Shown piece after piece: positions 21,373-32,279 of a DNA stretch of 64,000 nucleotides. The first letter of the stretch is position 1. Every line of letters begins with the position of its first letter. The DNA is from Bacteroidota bacterium (GTDB lineage Bacteria > Bacteroidota > Bacteroidia > Chitinophagales > LD1). The translations under genes and the position numbers were made by a program. The stretch is taken from contig JAPLES010000002.1 of assembly GCA_026391075.1 (NCBI GenBank), positions 156,673 to 220,672 of the forward strand. The letters run 5' to 3'. The notes beneath the pieces were generated by a model. It was not told the DNA's origin and made no database searches. It worked only from the letters and a program-made list of their open reading frames with translations.

Positions 21373-21460
21373 AGGGAAATTTTTTTGAGCGAGTGAAAAT
21401 AGAATTTTACTTTTCACTCACCGATGAAGAAAGTTGCTTCATCGTCAAACAACAAAGCCC

Positions 21461-23320
21461 ATGAAAAAAATTGAAAGAGCAGCACCTGTAAATTGGTATG
21501 ACCCCACACAATTGGCCGACACCGCATTGCGCTCCACGCTCTCCGAAATTTTTGCCACCTACTCTGATAAAAGAGAAACCTATTCGCACACCGCAATACC
21601 GGAACCTACATTGGTGGGCGAAGGCAAAGAAGAAGTGTGGGTTGATTACGCAGCCGATACCGGAGATGGATTTGATGCCACTTATTCAGTGGCATATTGT
21701 TTAGCGAATCCCGAAATAATTTCGGCAGCACATAAAGATTGGAAAGTTGCCGATGCATTAATTTTGGGTGGAGACCAGGTATATCCCACTCCCGGTGTAG
21801 ATGAATATGAGCGCAGATTTAAAAATGTTTTTGAAGCAGCATTTCCAAGAAATAGTTTAGTAGATGCACCAAGGTTATTTGCCATACCGGGTAATCACGA
21901 TTGGTATGATGGACTAAATAAATTTTTGAAAATATTTTGTCAACGAAGAAAAATAGGTGGCTGGCAAACGGCACAGGAGCGAAGTTATTTTGCTGTGACA
22001 CTGCCACACAACGTTTGGGTATTTGGAATTGATATTCAGTTAGAGGGAGCTATTGACGATTTGCAATTGCAGTACTTTGAAGGGGTAATGAAAAAAATAG
22101 CAAACGATGCAAAAATTATTTTGTGCACTGCAGAGCCAAATTGGTATCAGTGTACCGAGGATGTGAAGTCTACACAGTTTCGCACGCTCGATTATTTTAT
22201 AAGAAGAATAATTTATCAGGAAGGAGTTACGAATGAGCAAGAACAGAAAAACGCAAAGTTGATTTTAGTGCTTACGGGCGACAGCCATCATTATGCCGCC
22301 TATAAAGCCGAAGTGGATTACACCACAAATATTGATAAGCCTGAAACGCAGAAAAAATGGGAAACGCTTTTTATAACTGCAGGTGGTGGAGGAGCCTTCT
22401 TGCATCCCACACATAATTTGCACGATAAAAATGAGGCAGGTGAAAATGAATTGCGATATGAGTTTCCGGAAAAGACAAAAGATGAAGGAAGAAGTTTTAA
22501 GAGTAAAATTAATTGGAACTTTACTTATAAAGAATGCTATCCCGCAAAAGCAGATTCAAAAAAAATGACTTGGGGAAATTTGAAATTTGGTTTTCAGTCG
22601 TTGTTGCTTTCTGCTTTGTTTGGTTTTTTATATGCGGCTGTTTTTTTGAGTGTAGAAAACTATAGTATAGTCAATGATGCGGCCTACAATCCCATTGTTT
22701 CGTTTTCATCGCACCTGGCAAAACAACCATTGGCAAACGTAACTTGGGAAGTGACAAAAGAAGTTTTGGCAAATCCGGTGGCCTTGGTTTTCTCTTTGTT
22801 TTTTGTAACCATATTTTTTGTGGTGGCCACGCTTTATAAACGGAAACCGAATTTGATGATTGGTTTAGGCATAACTCATTTGCTTGTTCAATTTATTCTT
22901 ATGTGCACTTTTATTGGGTTATCTATCCACTGTATTTCACATTGTTTTTTTTCTGATGACACAAACAAAATGCTCAGTCCGGGTTTTCGAGTTTGTGCAT
23001 TCGCAATAATTTTTGGCATCGGTTTTTTGGTGAGCGGTTTTGTAATGGGTATTTATTTCATCATTGCCAATCTTGGTTTTAAAGTTCATGATAACGAAGC
23101 CTTCAGTTCGCTGAGTGTGCAGGATTACAAAAATTTTCTGCGCTTAAAAATCACAAAAGAGGAACTCACCGTTTATGTTGTGCGCATAAAAAAAGTAGCG
23201 AAAGACTGGCGCGAAAAAACAAGTGCCGATAAAACGGTTTCGGATTTGGTACCAAAAAAATCTCCGCTGCAATTTGAAGAAGTTACATCGCACATTTTTA
23301 AAAACAATAACTGGTCTTAA
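21461..23320 (+). CDS. Membrane-anchored calcineurin-like metallophosphoesterase
   Basis: MPE signature blocks appear in order: DYAADTGDG, LILGGDQVYP, IPGNHDWYDG and VLTGDSHHY. About 5-6 predicted TM helices follow (LLLSALFGFLYAAVFL ... FAIIFGIGFLVSGFVMGIYFII), then a soluble tail. ATG 21461 is preferred over the TTG at 21434. Confidence 0.75.
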   Translation: MKKIERAAPVNWYDPTQLADTALRSTLSEIFATYSDKRETYSHTAIPEPTLVGEGKEEVWVDYAADTGDGFDATYSVAYCLANPEIISAAHKDWKVADALILGGDQVYPTPGVDEYERRFKNVFEAAFPRNSLVDAPRLFAIPGNHDWYDGLNKFLKIFCQRRKIGGWQTAQERSYFAVTLPHNVWVFGIDIQLEGAIDDLQLQYFEGVMKKIANDAKIILCTAEPNWYQCTEDVKSTQFRTLDYFIRRIIYQEGVTNEQEQKNAKLILVLTGDSHHYAAYKAEVDYTTNIDKPETQKKWETLFITAGGGGAFLHPTHNLHDKNEAGENELRYEFPEKTKDEGRSFKSKINWNFTYKECYPAKADSKKMTWGNLKFGFQSLLLSALFGFLYAAVFLSVENYSIVNDAAYNPIVSFSSHLAKQPLANVTWEVTKEVLANPVALVFSLFFVTIFFVVATLYKRKPNLMIGLGITHLLVQFILMCTFIGLSIHCISHCFFSDDTNKMLSPGFRVCAFAIIFGIGFLVSGFVMGIYFIIANLGFKVHDNEAFSSLSVQDYKNFLRLKITKEELTVYVVRIKKVAKDWREKTSADKTVSDLVPKKSPLQFEEVTSHIFKNNNWS

Positions 23321-23343
23321 TATTTTTTACAAAAACTTAAATC

Positions 23344-25311
23344 ATGAATCTACCTTTCTTAAAAACATTGCGCGAAATGTGGACGGTCGTACAATCTATT
23401 CGTGTAGCACTGCTTATTGTTTTTTGTGGTTGGCTTTCGTTTTTACTGCCCGATCAATCGCAAGATTTTTATGTAAGTTTTAAGGGCGATAGTTTTAATC
23501 AAAATGCAGCCATGTATTTTGTTTTCCTTTTGCTTTGGAGTTTATTGTTGTGGCAAACCACTACACTGGTTTTAATTTTTTCGGAAATAGGAGGCTGCAA
23601 CAAAGACAATGTGCGTAAGCATTTAGTTTTACTTCCTGTGGGCCTTTCTTCGCTATCCATTTTACTTTTTGGTTTCAATCACTGGTATGTTTATCACCTG
23701 TGTAAATTTCCAAACGCTACAGTTGTGCTCATTAGATATTTTGTTCTTGCACTTGGTGTTGGATTTGCGCTAGCTTTTTATCAGTACAAAAAAATTCAGC
23801 GACTCGAAAAAAAGCAAGAAGGTTTGTTTGATGTGTCTGCTGTAGAAATGAGTACGTATTTTTCATTTGATAAATGGTTGCGCGTTGAATTGATTGTTAT
23901 TCTACTCGCGTTTTTAGTTGGTGTTATGCTATCGATATTTTCTCCAATAGCGCTTATAAATATTTCTGTAGCATTTGGCCCAGCTGCGGTTATTCTTTGC
24001 TCGTTGTTCTTCCTCACATTTTGGGGAATGGCCATCAATCTTGCAAGCAACAAAGTCGGCTTTCCGGTTTTGCCATTGATACTTCTAGTGCCCGTTATTT
24101 TTTCTTTCACTAACAACAATCACGAATTGCGGGCAGTAGAAAATCTAAAACGCATTTCTTCTACACAAAATAATGATGCTGTTTGTTTTGGAAACTGGTT
24201 AGAAAATTTGAAGCCAACTACACCAAAAGATTCAAGTCAAAAAGCGGAACCCATCAAAATAATTTTAGTAGCAGCCGAAGGGGGTGGCAGCAGAGCCGCT
24301 TATTGGGCAGCCGCGGTTTTGTGTACGTACTACGAAAAAAATCCCGGCAGCTTTCAGCACACGTTTGCCTTAAGCGGTGCATCGGGTGGTGCGGTGGGCA
24401 TTATGTTTTTTAATGCGCTGGCCTATCATGCGCTCGAACAAAAAAACGGGAAGACATTGGGTGCCGAAGATTTCAAAAAAATGAAAATACAATTGGATAC
24501 TATTTGCGGAGGCGATTTTCTATCGCCACTTACCACGGGCATGGTGCTGCCCGATGCCTTGCAAAAATTTCTGCCTTGTGCTATTGGAAAGTTTGACCGC
24601 GGCAGATATTTAGAAGATGCGTTTGCAAAAAGTTTTGAAGAGGTAACACAAAGTTGTTTGCTGAACGAAGGCGTGGATAGTTTGTATAGCACACCAAATA
24701 AAATTCCATCGCTGTTTTTTAATTGCACACATGTAGAAACGGGGCGCAAGTCTGTCATCAGCAATTTACAATTGAGTCCAAAATATTTTAAAGATGTGCT
24801 TGATGTAGAAACCAAAATTCAAAAATCAATTTTGTTGAAGACGGCCGTTTCATGTGCTTCGCGTTTCCCAATGGTTACACCGCCAGCGTTAATGATAGAT
24901 ACCAACGGAAAACCTTTCGGGCATTTAGTAGATGGCGGTTATTTTGATAACACCGGAATAGAAACTTGTTTGCAGTTATCGCAAATGATGCTGAACACAG
25001 CGCACAACAAAGGCATTCCTGTTCACATAAAAATTATGGGCATAATCAATTGCGCAAAACCCGACACGGCACCCGCGCTTGGTTTTAATTACGAAGCTGC
25101 TCCTGTTTTTGGCTTTTATAATTCGTGGTTGCGCAGAGCTATCTCCAATGAAAACATGGCCACGCGCATAGGAGAAATAGCCGGTGAAATAAGTTACGAG
25201 CGTGTGGAATTGAATGTAGGAGAAAACAAAATTTTTCCGTTGGGTTGGTATTTATCAAACAATGCGAGGCAACAAATGATGCTGCAGGCAGATGCGCTTT
25301 CGTTTAAATAA
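23344..25311 (+). CDS. Membrane-anchored patatin-like phospholipase
   Basis: About 270 aa of N-terminal polytopic membrane region, then the patatin triad context. This comprises an oxyanion GGGSRAAYW, a nucleophile elbow LSGASGG (GxSxG) and a catalytic Asp in HLVDGGYFDNTG. The gene lies 23 bp downstream of the MPE gene. Confidence 0.8.
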   Translation: MNLPFLKTLREMWTVVQSIRVALLIVFCGWLSFLLPDQSQDFYVSFKGDSFNQNAAMYFVFLLLWSLLLWQTTTLVLIFSEIGGCNKDNVRKHLVLLPVGLSSLSILLFGFNHWYVYHLCKFPNATVVLIRYFVLALGVGFALAFYQYKKIQRLEKKQEGLFDVSAVEMSTYFSFDKWLRVELIVILLAFLVGVMLSIFSPIALINISVAFGPAAVILCSLFFLTFWGMAINLASNKVGFPVLPLILLVPVIFSFTNNNHELRAVENLKRISSTQNNDAVCFGNWLENLKPTTPKDSSQKAEPIKIILVAAEGGGSRAAYWAAAVLCTYYEKNPGSFQHTFALSGASGGAVGIMFFNALAYHALEQKNGKTLGAEDFKKMKIQLDTICGGDFLSPLTTGMVLPDALQKFLPCAIGKFDRGRYLEDAFAKSFEEVTQSCLLNEGVDSLYSTPNKIPSLFFNCTHVETGRKSVISNLQLSPKYFKDVLDVETKIQKSILLKTAVSCASRFPMVTPPALMIDTNGKPFGHLVDGGYFDNTGIETCLQLSQMMLNTAHNKGIPVHIKIMGIINCAKPDTAPALGFNYEAAPVFGFYNSWLRRAISNENMATRIGEIAGEISYERVELNVGENKIFPLGWYLSNNARQQMMLQADALSFK

Positions 25312-25412
25312 AACCAAAAATTTTTTGAGCCGATACAACGAAAGGAGGAGCCGCAGCGTTTTATAAAAGGAAATCAATTTAAAATTATCTTCGTCCTCCG
25401 TTTCGCTTTGCT

Positions 25413-30235: not shown

Positions 30236-30311
30236 AGCAGAAAAAATCATTTATTAATGATTGGACACATCGTCAACTTGGAGCCGACAGAGAACAAATA
30301 AACAACAAGAG

Positions 30312-32279
30312 ATGACAAGAAGTTATTACTCCAACACCTTAACCGGTTTCTTGCAAGACGATGAGACGAAAATTCTTGGGCAGCTAAGTTTGAAACATAG
30401 CCACTCACTTGAGGACTTACAGAAAAACGCATGGATTAAGCAAATCAAAATTCTCAAAGATTCCCTCAAACAATTTGACAAAGGACAAATCTATTTTGAG
30501 TTCTCCATTCCGAGAATGGGGAAACGGGTTGACAATATTTTAATCATCAACGACCTGATTTTTGTTTTGGAATTTAAAGTTGGCGATTCAGAATATCAGA
30601 AGCATTCCATTGAGCAAGTAGTGGACTACTGTTTGGATTTGCAAAATTTTCACGAAGGAAGCCATCACGAAAAACTGATTCCACTTTTAGTTTCTACAAA
30701 AGCAGAAGCGATAGAAAATGTTTTTGAAGTCAACGACAATTTGTTTGAACCCATAAAAGCGAATCAACAAAACCTTAGTGAGGTAATTTCTCTTTCACTT
30801 ACTCAAAGCAACGGCACACAAATCAATTCTAAGGAGTGGGAAAATTCCATTTACAAACTTACTCCGACAATTATTGAAGCGTCACAGGCACTTTACAAAG
30901 GACACAATGTGAAAGAAATTTCACGACACGATGCTGGAGCTATCAATCTCACAAAGACAACCGACTGCATCAACAAAGTAATTGAGAAATCAAAAGCTGA
31001 AAACAAAAAATCAATATGCTTTTTAACTGGAGTTCCCGGTGCAGGAAAAACACTTGCCGGTTTGAACATTGCAAATCAAAGGAAGAAGATTGATGAAGAT
31101 GAACACGCAGTTTTTCTTTCTGGAAATGGTCCCTTAGTTTACGTTTTAAGAGAAGCATTGGCACGTGATGCTGTTGCAACTTCTAAGGAAAATAGAAAAT
31201 CATTGACAAAAAAGGAAGCAGAAAGAAATGCACATTCATTCATTCAAAATATTCATCACTTCCGAGATGAGTATTTAGGTCCAGAAAGGGCACCAGTAGA
31301 AAAAGTAGTTGTGTTTGACGAAGCACAAAGAGCATGGGCAAAAGAGCAAGTGGGTTCTTTCATGAAACGCAAAAAAGGCGTTGACGATTTTGATATGTCA
31401 GAACCAGAATTTCTAATCAGTGTCATGGACAGACACGAAGATTGGTGTACAATCATTTGTTTAATCGGAGGCGGACAAGAAATAAATACAGGCGAAGCCG
31501 GAGTTTCAGAATGGATTTCTTCTTTGAAGAATCACTTTCCAAATTGGGGCATTCATTTTTCAAATCTCATTTCCACCGACAACAATTATTTATCTGACAT
31601 TCCATTGAGAGATTGGTTACAAGAAAACGCAACCGAAGAACATGAATTACATCTTTCCGTTTCTGTTCGTTCTTTTCGTTCCGAAAAGATTTCGGAATTG
31701 ATGCATGAAATTTTGGAAGCCAAAATTTCCAACGCAAAGAAACTTGTTTTAGAAGTCAAAAATGATTTTCCGATTTTCCTGACAAGAGATATAACCACAG
31801 CAAAGAATTGGCTAAGAGAAAAAGCAAAAGGAAGTGAGAGAATTGGAATAGTTGCAAGTTCTGGCGGAAGAAGATTGCGACCGTTAGGGCTTGATGTAAA
31901 AAATGAAATCTCTGCACCGAATTGGTTTCTTAATAGCTCTGACGATGTTCGTTCATCAAACTATTTGGAAGAAGTCGCAACAGAGTTTGACATTCAGGGT
32001 TTAGAGATTGACTATGTTTGTTTGGCTTGGGACATCAATTATTATTTCAAAAATGGACAATGGAATTATCAAAGTTTTGAAGGCACTACTTGGCGACAAA
32101 TGCACAACGCAAATGACAGAACCTATTTGCAAAACGCTTACAGAGTTTTGCTAACAAGAGCACGACAAGGACTTATAATTTTGGTTCCCAATGGTGACGA
32201 CCTTGACCACACAAGACCGAAAGAACTTTATGACGAAACTTATAGGTACCTTCTATCATGCGGAATCTCAGAAGTCTAG
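30312..32279 (+). CDS. DUF2075-type protein: N-terminal PD-(D/E)xK-like nuclease fold fused to a P-loop SF1-like ATPase
   Basis: The N-terminal region RVDNILIINDLIFVLEFK has a D..ExK pattern. Walker A is LTGVPGAGKT, Walker B is VVVFDEAQRAW, and the C-terminus YRVLLTRARQGLIILV is a UvrD_C-like block. ATG 30312 is preferred. Confidence 0.72.
   Translation: MTRSYYSNTLTGFLQDDETKILGQLSLKHSHSLEDLQKNAWIKQIKILKDSLKQFDKGQIYFEFSIPRMGKRVDNILIINDLIFVLEFKVGDSEYQKHSIEQVVDYCLDLQNFHEGSHHEKLIPLLVSTKAEAIENVFEVNDNLFEPIKANQQNLSEVISLSLTQSNGTQINSKEWENSIYKLTPTIIEASQALYKGHNVKEISRHDAGAINLTKTTDCINKVIEKSKAENKKSICFLTGVPGAGKTLAGLNIANQRKKIDEDEHAVFLSGNGPLVYVLREALARDAVATSKENRKSLTKKEAERNAHSFIQNIHHFRDEYLGPERAPVEKVVVFDEAQRAWAKEQVGSFMKRKKGVDDFDMSEPEFLISVMDRHEDWCTIICLIGGGQEINTGEAGVSEWISSLKNHFPNWGIHFSNLISTDNNYLSDIPLRDWLQENATEEHELHLSVSVRSFRSEKISELMHEILEAKISNAKKLVLEVKNDFPIFLTRDITTAKNWLREKAKGSERIGIVASSGGRRLRPLGLDVKNEISAPNWFLNSSDDVRSSNYLEEVATEFDIQGLEIDYVCLAWDINYYFKNGQWNYQSFEGTTWRQMHNANDRTYLQNAYRVLLTRARQGLIILVPNGDDLDHTRPKELYDETYRYLLSCGISEV

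Follow-up and report, generated by a model that had tools for sequence, protein, structure and literature searches.

A clade-restricted gene pair for a membrane phosphoesterase and a membrane patatin with a possible role in lipid turnover in a Bacteroidota bacterium

PlcP is a phospholipase C of the metallophosphoesterase fold that is known to act in membrane lipid remodelling (PMC9239053, PMC4796936). Here we analyzed two adjacent genes, one encoding a metallophosphoesterase (gene 1) and the other a patatin (gene 2), each fused to a multi-pass membrane domain, in a 64,000-nucleotide stretch of DNA from Bacteroidota bacterium (assembly GCA_026391075.1, contig JAPLES010000002.1, positions 156,673 to 220,672 of the forward strand; the whole stretch is called the window below). 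An earlier reading of the sequence alone, referred to as the original prediction, had pointed out the pair as a candidate two-gene module, and both open reading frames (ORFs), their common strand and the gap of 23 nucleotides (nt) between them were confirmed by the ORFs and by reading the sequence. In the case of plcP, the gene is paired with the glycosyltransferase gene agt, and the criteria for that module include Pho regulation. PlcP, which works in phosphate-stress lipid remodelling, is a functional precedent for the role that we propose for gene 1, likened by fold and function; in contrast with the PlcP-Agt module, no glycosyltransferase adjoins gene 1 and a patatin gene stands there instead, so the locus does not belong to that module. 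Our best explanation, which we hold with roughly even confidence, is that the locus is a clade-restricted, probably co-transcribed pair of unrelated inner-membrane hydrolases most likely acting on membrane (phospho)lipids, where lipid substrates, co-transcription, topology and pathway coupling are what we infer.

Gene 1 (21461..23320, + strand, ATG start) encodes a protein of 619 amino acids (aa), an integral-membrane, purple-acid-phosphatase-like metallophosphoesterase, based on its ORF, Pfam PF00149, an AlphaFold2 (AF2) model and Foldseek. Because an identical 619-aa protein is already recorded ('MAG: metallophosphoesterase [Bacteroidetes bacterium]', on a 255-kb contig of a metagenome-assembled genome, MAG), the ATG at 21461 was taken as the start; a TTG at 21434 is a possible alternative upstream start. 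The N-terminal catalytic domain (aa 1-360, 21461..22540, + strand) has no signal peptide and matches Pfam Metallophos PF00149 over aa 95-276 with 24.9 bits at a cut-off of 21.5. Its metal-ligand motifs are D62-T-G, G-D105-Q-V-Y108, G-N145-H146-D, G-D274-S-H276-H277 and GGGGAFLH315PTH318. When family conservation was read from alignments of 24 and 76 sequences, D62, G103-G104-D105, Y108, G144-N145-H146-D147, G273-D274, H276-H277, G308-G311, H315 and H318 were invariant or nearly so; among the 76 sequences no variation occurs at D62, D105, Y108, N145, H146, H276 or H277, and hardly any at H315 and H318. The AF2 model (predicted local distance difference test, pLDDT, 87.5; predicted template-modelling score, pTM, 0.90) has purple acid phosphatases, GAP50 and PhoD as its top Foldseek matches, with a probability of 1.0, E-values from 8e-8 to 2e-5 and a TM-score of about 0.5 on the target, and Mre11-type nucleases score far below these structures. 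A profile search of PDB sequences gave a weak purple acid phosphatase match (E 0.013), and PDB sequence searches with either gene yielded nothing below an E-value of about 0.01. By profile, metal-ligand motifs and fold alike, gene 1 belongs to the calcineurin-like metallophosphoesterase superfamily. As for the purple acid phosphatases themselves, secreted or lumenal enzymes whose full motif set reads DxG/GDxxY/GNH(D/E)/VxxH/GHxH, GDxxY and GNHD are present and the invariant tyrosine of GDxxY, Y108, fits such a relationship, but the last motifs deviate (GDSHH and HPTH), a signal peptide is missing, the domain is predicted to be cytoplasmic and the TM-score is about 0.5.

The catalytic domain is followed by a membrane domain with four strong transmembrane (TM) helices (aa 363-540, 22547..23080, + strand), identified by hydropathy and in the AF2 model. 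The hydrophobic segments lie at about 380-398, 440-458, 467-492 and 511-529, and the modeled helices span 381-401, 439-457, 463-496 and 507-540. H473, H543, E546 and S549 are given as family-conserved polar residues of this domain, for which Pfam returned nothing up to an E-value of 10. A beta domain follows at the C-terminus (aa 557-614, 23129..23302, + strand); it was recognized from AF2 strands and conservation and opens with the conserved K557-N-F-L-R561. For 69 of 120 homologs of the gene-1 family, the positive-inside count returned four TM helices with both termini inside (N-in/C-in). Considering this count together with the lack of a signal peptide, the catalytic domain is probably cytoplasmic. 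The gene 1 product of the window also carries an insertion of about 20-25 residues relative to its homologs, at aa ~325-350 (22433-22510, the ENELRYEFPEKTKDEGRSFKSKINWNF region), where the model has a pLDDT of 66-70.

Gene 2 (23344..25311, + strand) encodes a 655-aa protein in which seven TM segments precede a patatin-like acyl hydrolase domain, based on its ORF, Pfam PF01734, an AF2 model and Foldseek. Hydropathy and family conservation place the N-terminal membrane domain at aa 1-256 (23344..24123, + strand), with seven hydrophobic segments within aa 18-256, and a family motif, N257-x-N259-H260, marks the junction with the patatin domain. The latter was delimited by invariant columns, Pfam and Foldseek at aa ~300-655 (24241..25308, + strand) and matches Pfam Patatin PF01734 over aa 312-541 with 29.5 bits at a cut-off of 27.7. 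It contains the oxyanion hole G313-G-G-S-R317 (24280-24294), the nucleophile S347 in GASGG (24382-24384), the catalytic D530 in DGG (24931-24933) and a C-terminal family motif, P632-L-G-W635. G313-G315, S347-G349 and D530-G532 are invariant, and R317 is found in at least 90% of 24 sequences. The AF2 model (pLDDT 84.8, pTM 0.88) matched CapE, plant patatin, VipD, cPLA2 and PlpD in Foldseek, all with a probability of 1.0 and about equally well. The protein is thus a patatin-like phospholipase by its profile, GGGxR, GxSxG, DG(G/A) and fold. When aa 1-300 were searched exhaustively by phmmer, 22 representatives were recovered, 558-781 aa long and each matching in its N-terminal half; these proteins are similar in length to gene 2 and suggest no other fusion partner, and the TM domain appears to be dedicated to the patatin family. 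The membrane domain had no Pfam match even at E<=10. The positive-inside count predicts seven TM helices, a cytoplasmic N-terminus and a periplasmic patatin domain for gene 2 of the window, a call that is unstable across the gene-2 family.

The original prediction had assigned to gene 1 an N-terminal calcineurin-like metallophosphoesterase domain with all motif blocks, and to gene 2 about seven TM helices ahead of a patatin domain in which GGGSR, GASGG and DGG are intact. Pfam and the alignments bear out both descriptions, together with the fold in gene 1 and hydropathy in gene 2, and every motif quoted for the two genes was found and is invariant or nearly so in the family alignments. In gene 1 a multi-pass membrane domain does follow the catalytic domain; the count of 5-6 helices was too high, since four are strong and a C-terminal beta domain completes the protein. 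The prediction had also raised the idea that the TM domains might be homologous to each other or to sensor domains, and neither relationship was found. Homology between the two TM domains was rejected by hhalign (probability 0.2%). Their assignment to known sensor domains or to Lipocone-type lipid-head-group domains, the latter an idea drawn from PMC12419801, found no support, as Pfam gave no match and Foldseek against PDB gave nothing significant outside the catalytic domains, a result that is not a sensitive exclusion. NCBIfam contains no model that matches gene 1 or gene 2.

The stop codon of gene 1 and the start of gene 2 are separated by a 23-nt spacer (23321..23343, + strand) in which no terminator-like site was found and, considering this short gap and the lack of a terminator, the two genes probably form one operon and are co-transcribed. 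To follow the locus through relatives of the window, we walked outward via homologs of the flanking amidohydrolase. Two sister lineages carry the pair: lineage A (L001-L003), with amino-acid identities to the window of 90% for gene 2 and 87% for gene 1, and lineage B (L178-L182), with 89% and 93%, respectively. The more distant locus L177, whose flanking amidohydrolase is 83% identical, keeps the M43 peptidase, YbeY, GidA, Big_5, two amidohydrolases and the PKD/CHU_C adhesin and lacks both genes. Its empty site (L177:3320-3475) is a 156-bp intergenic region, of which the first 45 bp correspond to the left side of the window (97%) and the last 49 bp to the right side (94%). Because L177 lacks both genes at this clean site, the gain or loss concerned the two genes jointly, as a single unit of about 3.9 kb. 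The description of the pair as a self-contained unit is upheld by this syntenic relative, from which exactly these two genes are missing. L174, L175 and L176 also lack both genes, and their slot is filled by other genes.

We then analyzed the neighbours of the gene-1 family at large. This family comprises more than 5,230 database clusters at E<=1e-3, matching over the full length with 34-39% identity, mostly from Cytophagales and from soil and marine metagenomes. From it we took 80 loci from metagenomes, with at least 2.5 kb of downstream sequence in 44 and at least 2.5 kb of upstream sequence in 39. A first clustering placed patatins in 28 of the 80 loci, often three per locus; Pfam exposed this figure as a single-linkage artefact, in which patatin, alpha/beta hydrolase and GMC oxidoreductase had been merged through fusion proteins. 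Neighbours were recounted by blastp to exemplars over the 80 loci and over a subset of 37 with at least 1.5 kb on both flanks. In this recount a GMC oxidoreductase lies beside the gene-1 family in 24/80 loci (14/37 in the subset) and a soluble patatin of ~476 aa in 10/80 (8/37). A Pfam scan of 129 immediate neighbours in 79 loci likewise ranked GMC oxidoreductase first with 18 and Patatin second with 6, all other families reaching at most 3.

The soluble patatin always lies within a cluster of seven genes. These encode an alpha/beta hydrolase (~337 aa), an ADC-like protein (PF06314, ~296 aa), a DUF1772/Anthrone_oxy protein (PF08592, ~160 aa), a 4-TM protein (~150 aa), the soluble patatin, the membrane phosphoesterase and a GMC oxidoreductase (~778 aa). 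The cluster is found in Cyclobacterium marinum CP002955 (L167:3668-12060), at L090:5089-14160 and in L086, L094, L095, L099 and L146, and in rearranged form in L098, L131, L139 and L166 (Spirosoma sp. KCTC 42546). In L086, L094 and L095 the patatin stop codon overlaps the start of the phosphoesterase gene. The cluster phosphoesterase aligns with gene 1 over its full length at 34-38% identity, which is ortholog-level, while the cluster patatin shows no particular relationship to gene 2 (blastp E 0.09; no match to the hidden Markov model, HMM, of the gene-2 family).

Patatin-type lipases are therefore genuine, recurrent neighbours of the gene-1 family, but the patatin involved is a different one from gene 2. 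This linkage makes it less likely that the adjacency in the window is pure chance, and it points to lipid chemistry. Lipid remodelling, which the original prediction had offered as the mundane alternative to a defence role, is the better supported of the two readings, and it gains indirect support from family members elsewhere that repeatedly adjoin a soluble patatin. We regard it as a tentative idea, considerably less probable than not, that phosphoesterases of the gene-1 family have a general, as yet undescribed partnership with patatin-type acyl hydrolases, serving the catabolism or remodelling of membrane phospholipids. Such a module would have arisen on at least two occasions with patatins that are not orthologous, soluble in Cytophagales and 7-TM here. 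If this were true, the pair in the window would be an independent re-invention of the same two-step chemistry. The Cytophagales cluster is the more useful lead and would be a better experimental entry than a clade-restricted, apparently decaying pair.

In the mechanism that we propose, gene 2, held in the membrane by its own 7-TM domain, would use its Ser347/Asp530 dyad to deacylate a membrane glycerolipid, as a phospholipase A or lysophospholipase. Gene 1, a binuclear-metal enzyme anchored by four TM helices at the cytoplasmic face, would cleave a phosphomonoester or phosphodiester on the lipid head group or on the deacylated product, and together the two enzymes might serve phospholipid turnover or remodelling. 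Such coupling would be optional, with no obligate two-component machine, because each family normally occurs alone and the assemblies with a broken gene 1 still have an intact gene 2. If the pair acts on membrane lipids, a substrate class would be indicated for two large families of uncharacterised membrane enzymes.

Several observations weigh against a pair of coupled lipid hydrolases. Neither family has a characterised member among NCBIfam models or PDB sequence matches, and the lipid roles are what we infer. A periplasmic patatin domain and a cytoplasmic phosphoesterase domain, as predicted for the window, would argue against direct hand-over of a substrate, although this topology prediction is not consistent among family members. 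Outside the window's clade the two families do not meet. Relatives of gene 2 occur in at least 403 species-representative genomes of Bacteroidota, Pseudomonadota, Verrucomicrobiota, Acidobacteriota and others, and 81 loci of the gene-2 family were retrieved, with flanks of up to 10 kb where the contig allows. Relatives of gene 1 were present in none of these 81 other loci, as judged by the gene-1-family profile HMM and by tblastn with gene 1, and relatives of gene 2 in none of the 80 other gene-1-family loci, as judged by the gene-2-family HMM. The pair is thus missing from 161 other loci, and its coupling may be incidental. Each family normally occurs without the other and the pair is confined to the window's clade, a narrow group of Chitinophagales-like bacteria; the proposal of a conserved two-gene module is not sustained, as the families are found mostly apart, the very outcome that the original prediction had named as refuting it. 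Even within the clade, gene 1 is interrupted in all seven sister assemblies by three different lesions, with gene 2 intact in all seven, and the joint role of the pair is therefore dispensable in these assemblies. In lineage A, all three assemblies carry a CAG->TAA change at gene 1 codon 193 (L001-L003:6119-7978). In lineage B, one T is gained in a T7 run (T7->T8) at gene 1 nt 1180 in three assemblies (L179, L180, L182:1118-2978) and one T is lost from a T8 run (T8->T7) at nt 1485 in another (L181:1022-2880), and the four gene 1 copies are 100% identical apart from these lesions. The gene 1 of the window is the only intact copy seen in the clade. The ratio of nonsynonymous to synonymous substitution rates (dN/dS) is ~0.10 for gene 2 and 0.04-0.17 for segments of gene 1, low values which indicate that purifying selection acted on both genes for most of the time since they diverged. 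At these values no relaxation of selection could be detected in the interrupted gene 1 copies; either the lesions arose recently or older divergence dominates the comparisons.

Part of this evidence would be expected if the adjacency were a coincidence, that is, if two independent accessory membrane enzymes with unrelated functions had come to share a single variable slot flanked by the amidohydrolase and the adhesin. This explanation is a serious minority possibility, and we consider it unlikely on balance. The separation of the two families elsewhere agrees with it, as do the loss of gene 1 beside an intact gene 2 that evolves at a dN/dS of ~0.10 and the other genes that occupy the slot in L174-L176. 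The gene-2 family also behaves as a solo gene without a recurrent neighbour: neighbour clusters reach at most 10 loci each, and Pfam families at most 5 of 139 immediate neighbours. However, coincidence does not readily account for a terminator-free gap of 23 nt, for the joint absence of both genes from the clean L177 site, or for the independent enrichment of patatins (6/129) next to the gene-1 family. The frameshifts in lineage B bring in a further explanation, a phase-variable pair in which slippage in poly-T runs switches gene 1 on and off and modulates a membrane or lipid phenotype jointly with gene 2. The T7->T8 and T8->T7 changes in otherwise identical copies (three and one, respectively) and the seven homopolymer runs of at least 7 nt in gene 1 would fit such a switch. 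We nevertheless find it improbable: by the standard of classical contingency loci, runs of 7-8 nt are short, none of the five A7 runs in gene 2 has an indel in any assembly, and homopolymer sequencing or assembly error is possible. Pseudogenisation, phase variation and homopolymer error are all possible causes of the poly-T changes; the two-base CAG->TAA change at codon 193 in lineage A is not slippage, and it is neither phase variation nor homopolymer error.

The remaining explanation is that the locus forms a novel two-gene anti-phage or conflict module, in which the patatin would act as the effector by degrading membranes, while the phosphoesterase would sense or regulate, e.g. by degrading a nucleotide signal. 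The original prediction had considered such a role by analogy with the cyclic-oligonucleotide-based anti-phage signalling system (CBASS), and we judge it very unlikely. While the best Foldseek match of gene 2 is the CBASS effector CapE, it is barely ahead of plant patatin (5e-7 vs 8e-6), and the similarity to CapE is no better than that to generic patatins. The neighbours of the pair are the amidohydrolase and the adhesin, and no CD-NTase, SAVED or CARF partner lies beside it. In the PADLOC models of defence systems, gene 1 had no match and gene 2 only a sub-threshold match to ThsA (E 0.076), with no stretch passing alone; the pair does not belong to a system catalogued there. None of the members of the Cytophagales cluster, the partners of the gene-1 family, matches a PADLOC model either. 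The pair does act as a mobile indel, a PADLOC candidate gene (PDC-S41) lies 5 kb downstream, though as a separate insertion, and a few neighbours of the gene-2 family elsewhere match PADLOC models (mREase IV, BrxH, SduA, mad2); these neighbours are compatible with an accessory gene in variable regions and are too weak to build on. Against a defence role, the fold of gene 1 is phosphatase-like (purple acid phosphatase/PhoD) and not Mre11-like, the pair is not conserved outside one clade, gene 1 is inactivated while gene 2 is retained, and the genomic context is of a housekeeping kind. The gene-1 and gene-2 families are also very rare in 2.9 million viral contigs (5 and 1 matches, respectively), and a phage origin of the pair is unsupported by these counts. 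With no defence partner and no PADLOC match above threshold, the pair is not a new CBASS-like module, which is a negative result for defence-system discovery. Taken all together, the pair is real but narrow in distribution and partly decaying; it is most simply explained as lipid hydrolases and looks like a local pair, not a new widespread system.

The surroundings of the pair comprise genes for PBP1, Mfd, MnmG, amidohydrolases, type IX secretion adhesins and AnmK. On its left the pair adjoins a divergent amidohydrolase gene (- strand, likely start 21372) and on its right a gene for a PKD/CHU_C type IX secretion adhesin. The divergent intergenic region between the amidohydrolase gene and gene 1 (21373..21460), which may act as a promoter, contains an A3T7GAGC run (21377-21390) and the inverted repeat GAGTGAAAA/TTTTCACTC (21391-21419). 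This inverted repeat is kept at the L177 empty site and in lineage A. A second inverted repeat, GATGAAG...CTTCATC (21423-21443), lies upstream of gene 1 and was flagged as terminator-like on the - strand. An A5T6GAGC run (25316..25330), directly 3' of the gene 2 stop codon, resembles the A3T7GAGC run at the left boundary. Only three copies of TTTTTTGAG occur on the + strand of the 64-kb window, two of which flank the pair and the third of which is the T7 run inside gene 1. The two-gene unit thus has one copy of the A/T run with GAGC at each end, and the L177 empty site has a single copy. A simple deletion by recombination between these flanking repeats was rejected, because L177 retains the sequence that follows the left repeat. 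The GC content of the pair and that of its third codon positions (GC3) equal those of the flanks, and recent horizontal transfer, judged by composition, is unsupported. When synonymous divergence (dS) was compared, gene 1 of the window differed from that of lineage A (L003) by 0.97, about twice the value for gene 2 (0.49) or the adhesin (0.59), whereas the comparison with lineage B gave similar values for gene 1 (0.49) and gene 2 (0.52). The elevated dS of gene 1 toward lineage A hints at recombination or allelic replacement within gene 1. Further downstream, a 672-aa gene at 30261-32279 (+ strand) matches PADLOC PDC-S41 over its full length (E 1e-291). It lies between AnmK and an FtsX/MacB-like permease and, since AnmK is followed directly by the permease in lineage A, it is a strain-specific insertion.

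As the original prediction had stated, the pairing of a metallophosphoesterase and a patatin does not correspond to a named system: besides the PADLOC and NCBIfam results given above, neither a patatin/metallophosphoesterase pairing nor a membrane-tethered bacterial patatin nor the Cytophagales 7-gene cluster was described in the literature that was searched. That cluster resembles the window in that a relative of gene 1 lies directly beside a patatin gene on the same strand. It differs in that its patatin is soluble and no closer to gene 2 than any patatin, and the other five partners (alpha/beta hydrolase, ADC-like, DUF1772, 4-TM and GMC proteins) do not surround the pair in the window, which is thus not a member of the cluster. 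Compared with purple acid phosphatases and PhoD, gene 1 shares the calcineurin-like fold, with its best Foldseek matches among them (PDB 5uq6, 1war, 3tgh GAP50, 2yeq PhoD), and likewise has DxG, GDxxY with the invariant Y108, GNHD and two downstream histidine motifs (GDSH276H277 and H315PTH318). Identity to these proteins is just 11-14%, and in contrast to them gene 1 has no signal peptide and carries a 4-TM domain and a C-terminal beta domain; its last histidine motif is HxxH and not the GHxH of purple acid phosphatases. To our knowledge, no purple acid phosphatase or PhoD has this architecture. Gene 2 shares the Ser-Asp dyad, GGGxR, GxSxG, DGG and the patatin fold with plant patatin, CBASS CapV/CapE, ExoU/VipD, PlpD and cPLA2. 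Unlike these lipases it has no cyclic-nucleotide partner gene, secretion signal or autotransporter barrel, and its 7-TM domain, the NxNH junction motif and the PLGW motif are missing from all matched structures. Both proteins are therefore members of known superfamilies, metallophosphoesterase and patatin, in uncharacterised polytopic-membrane architectures.

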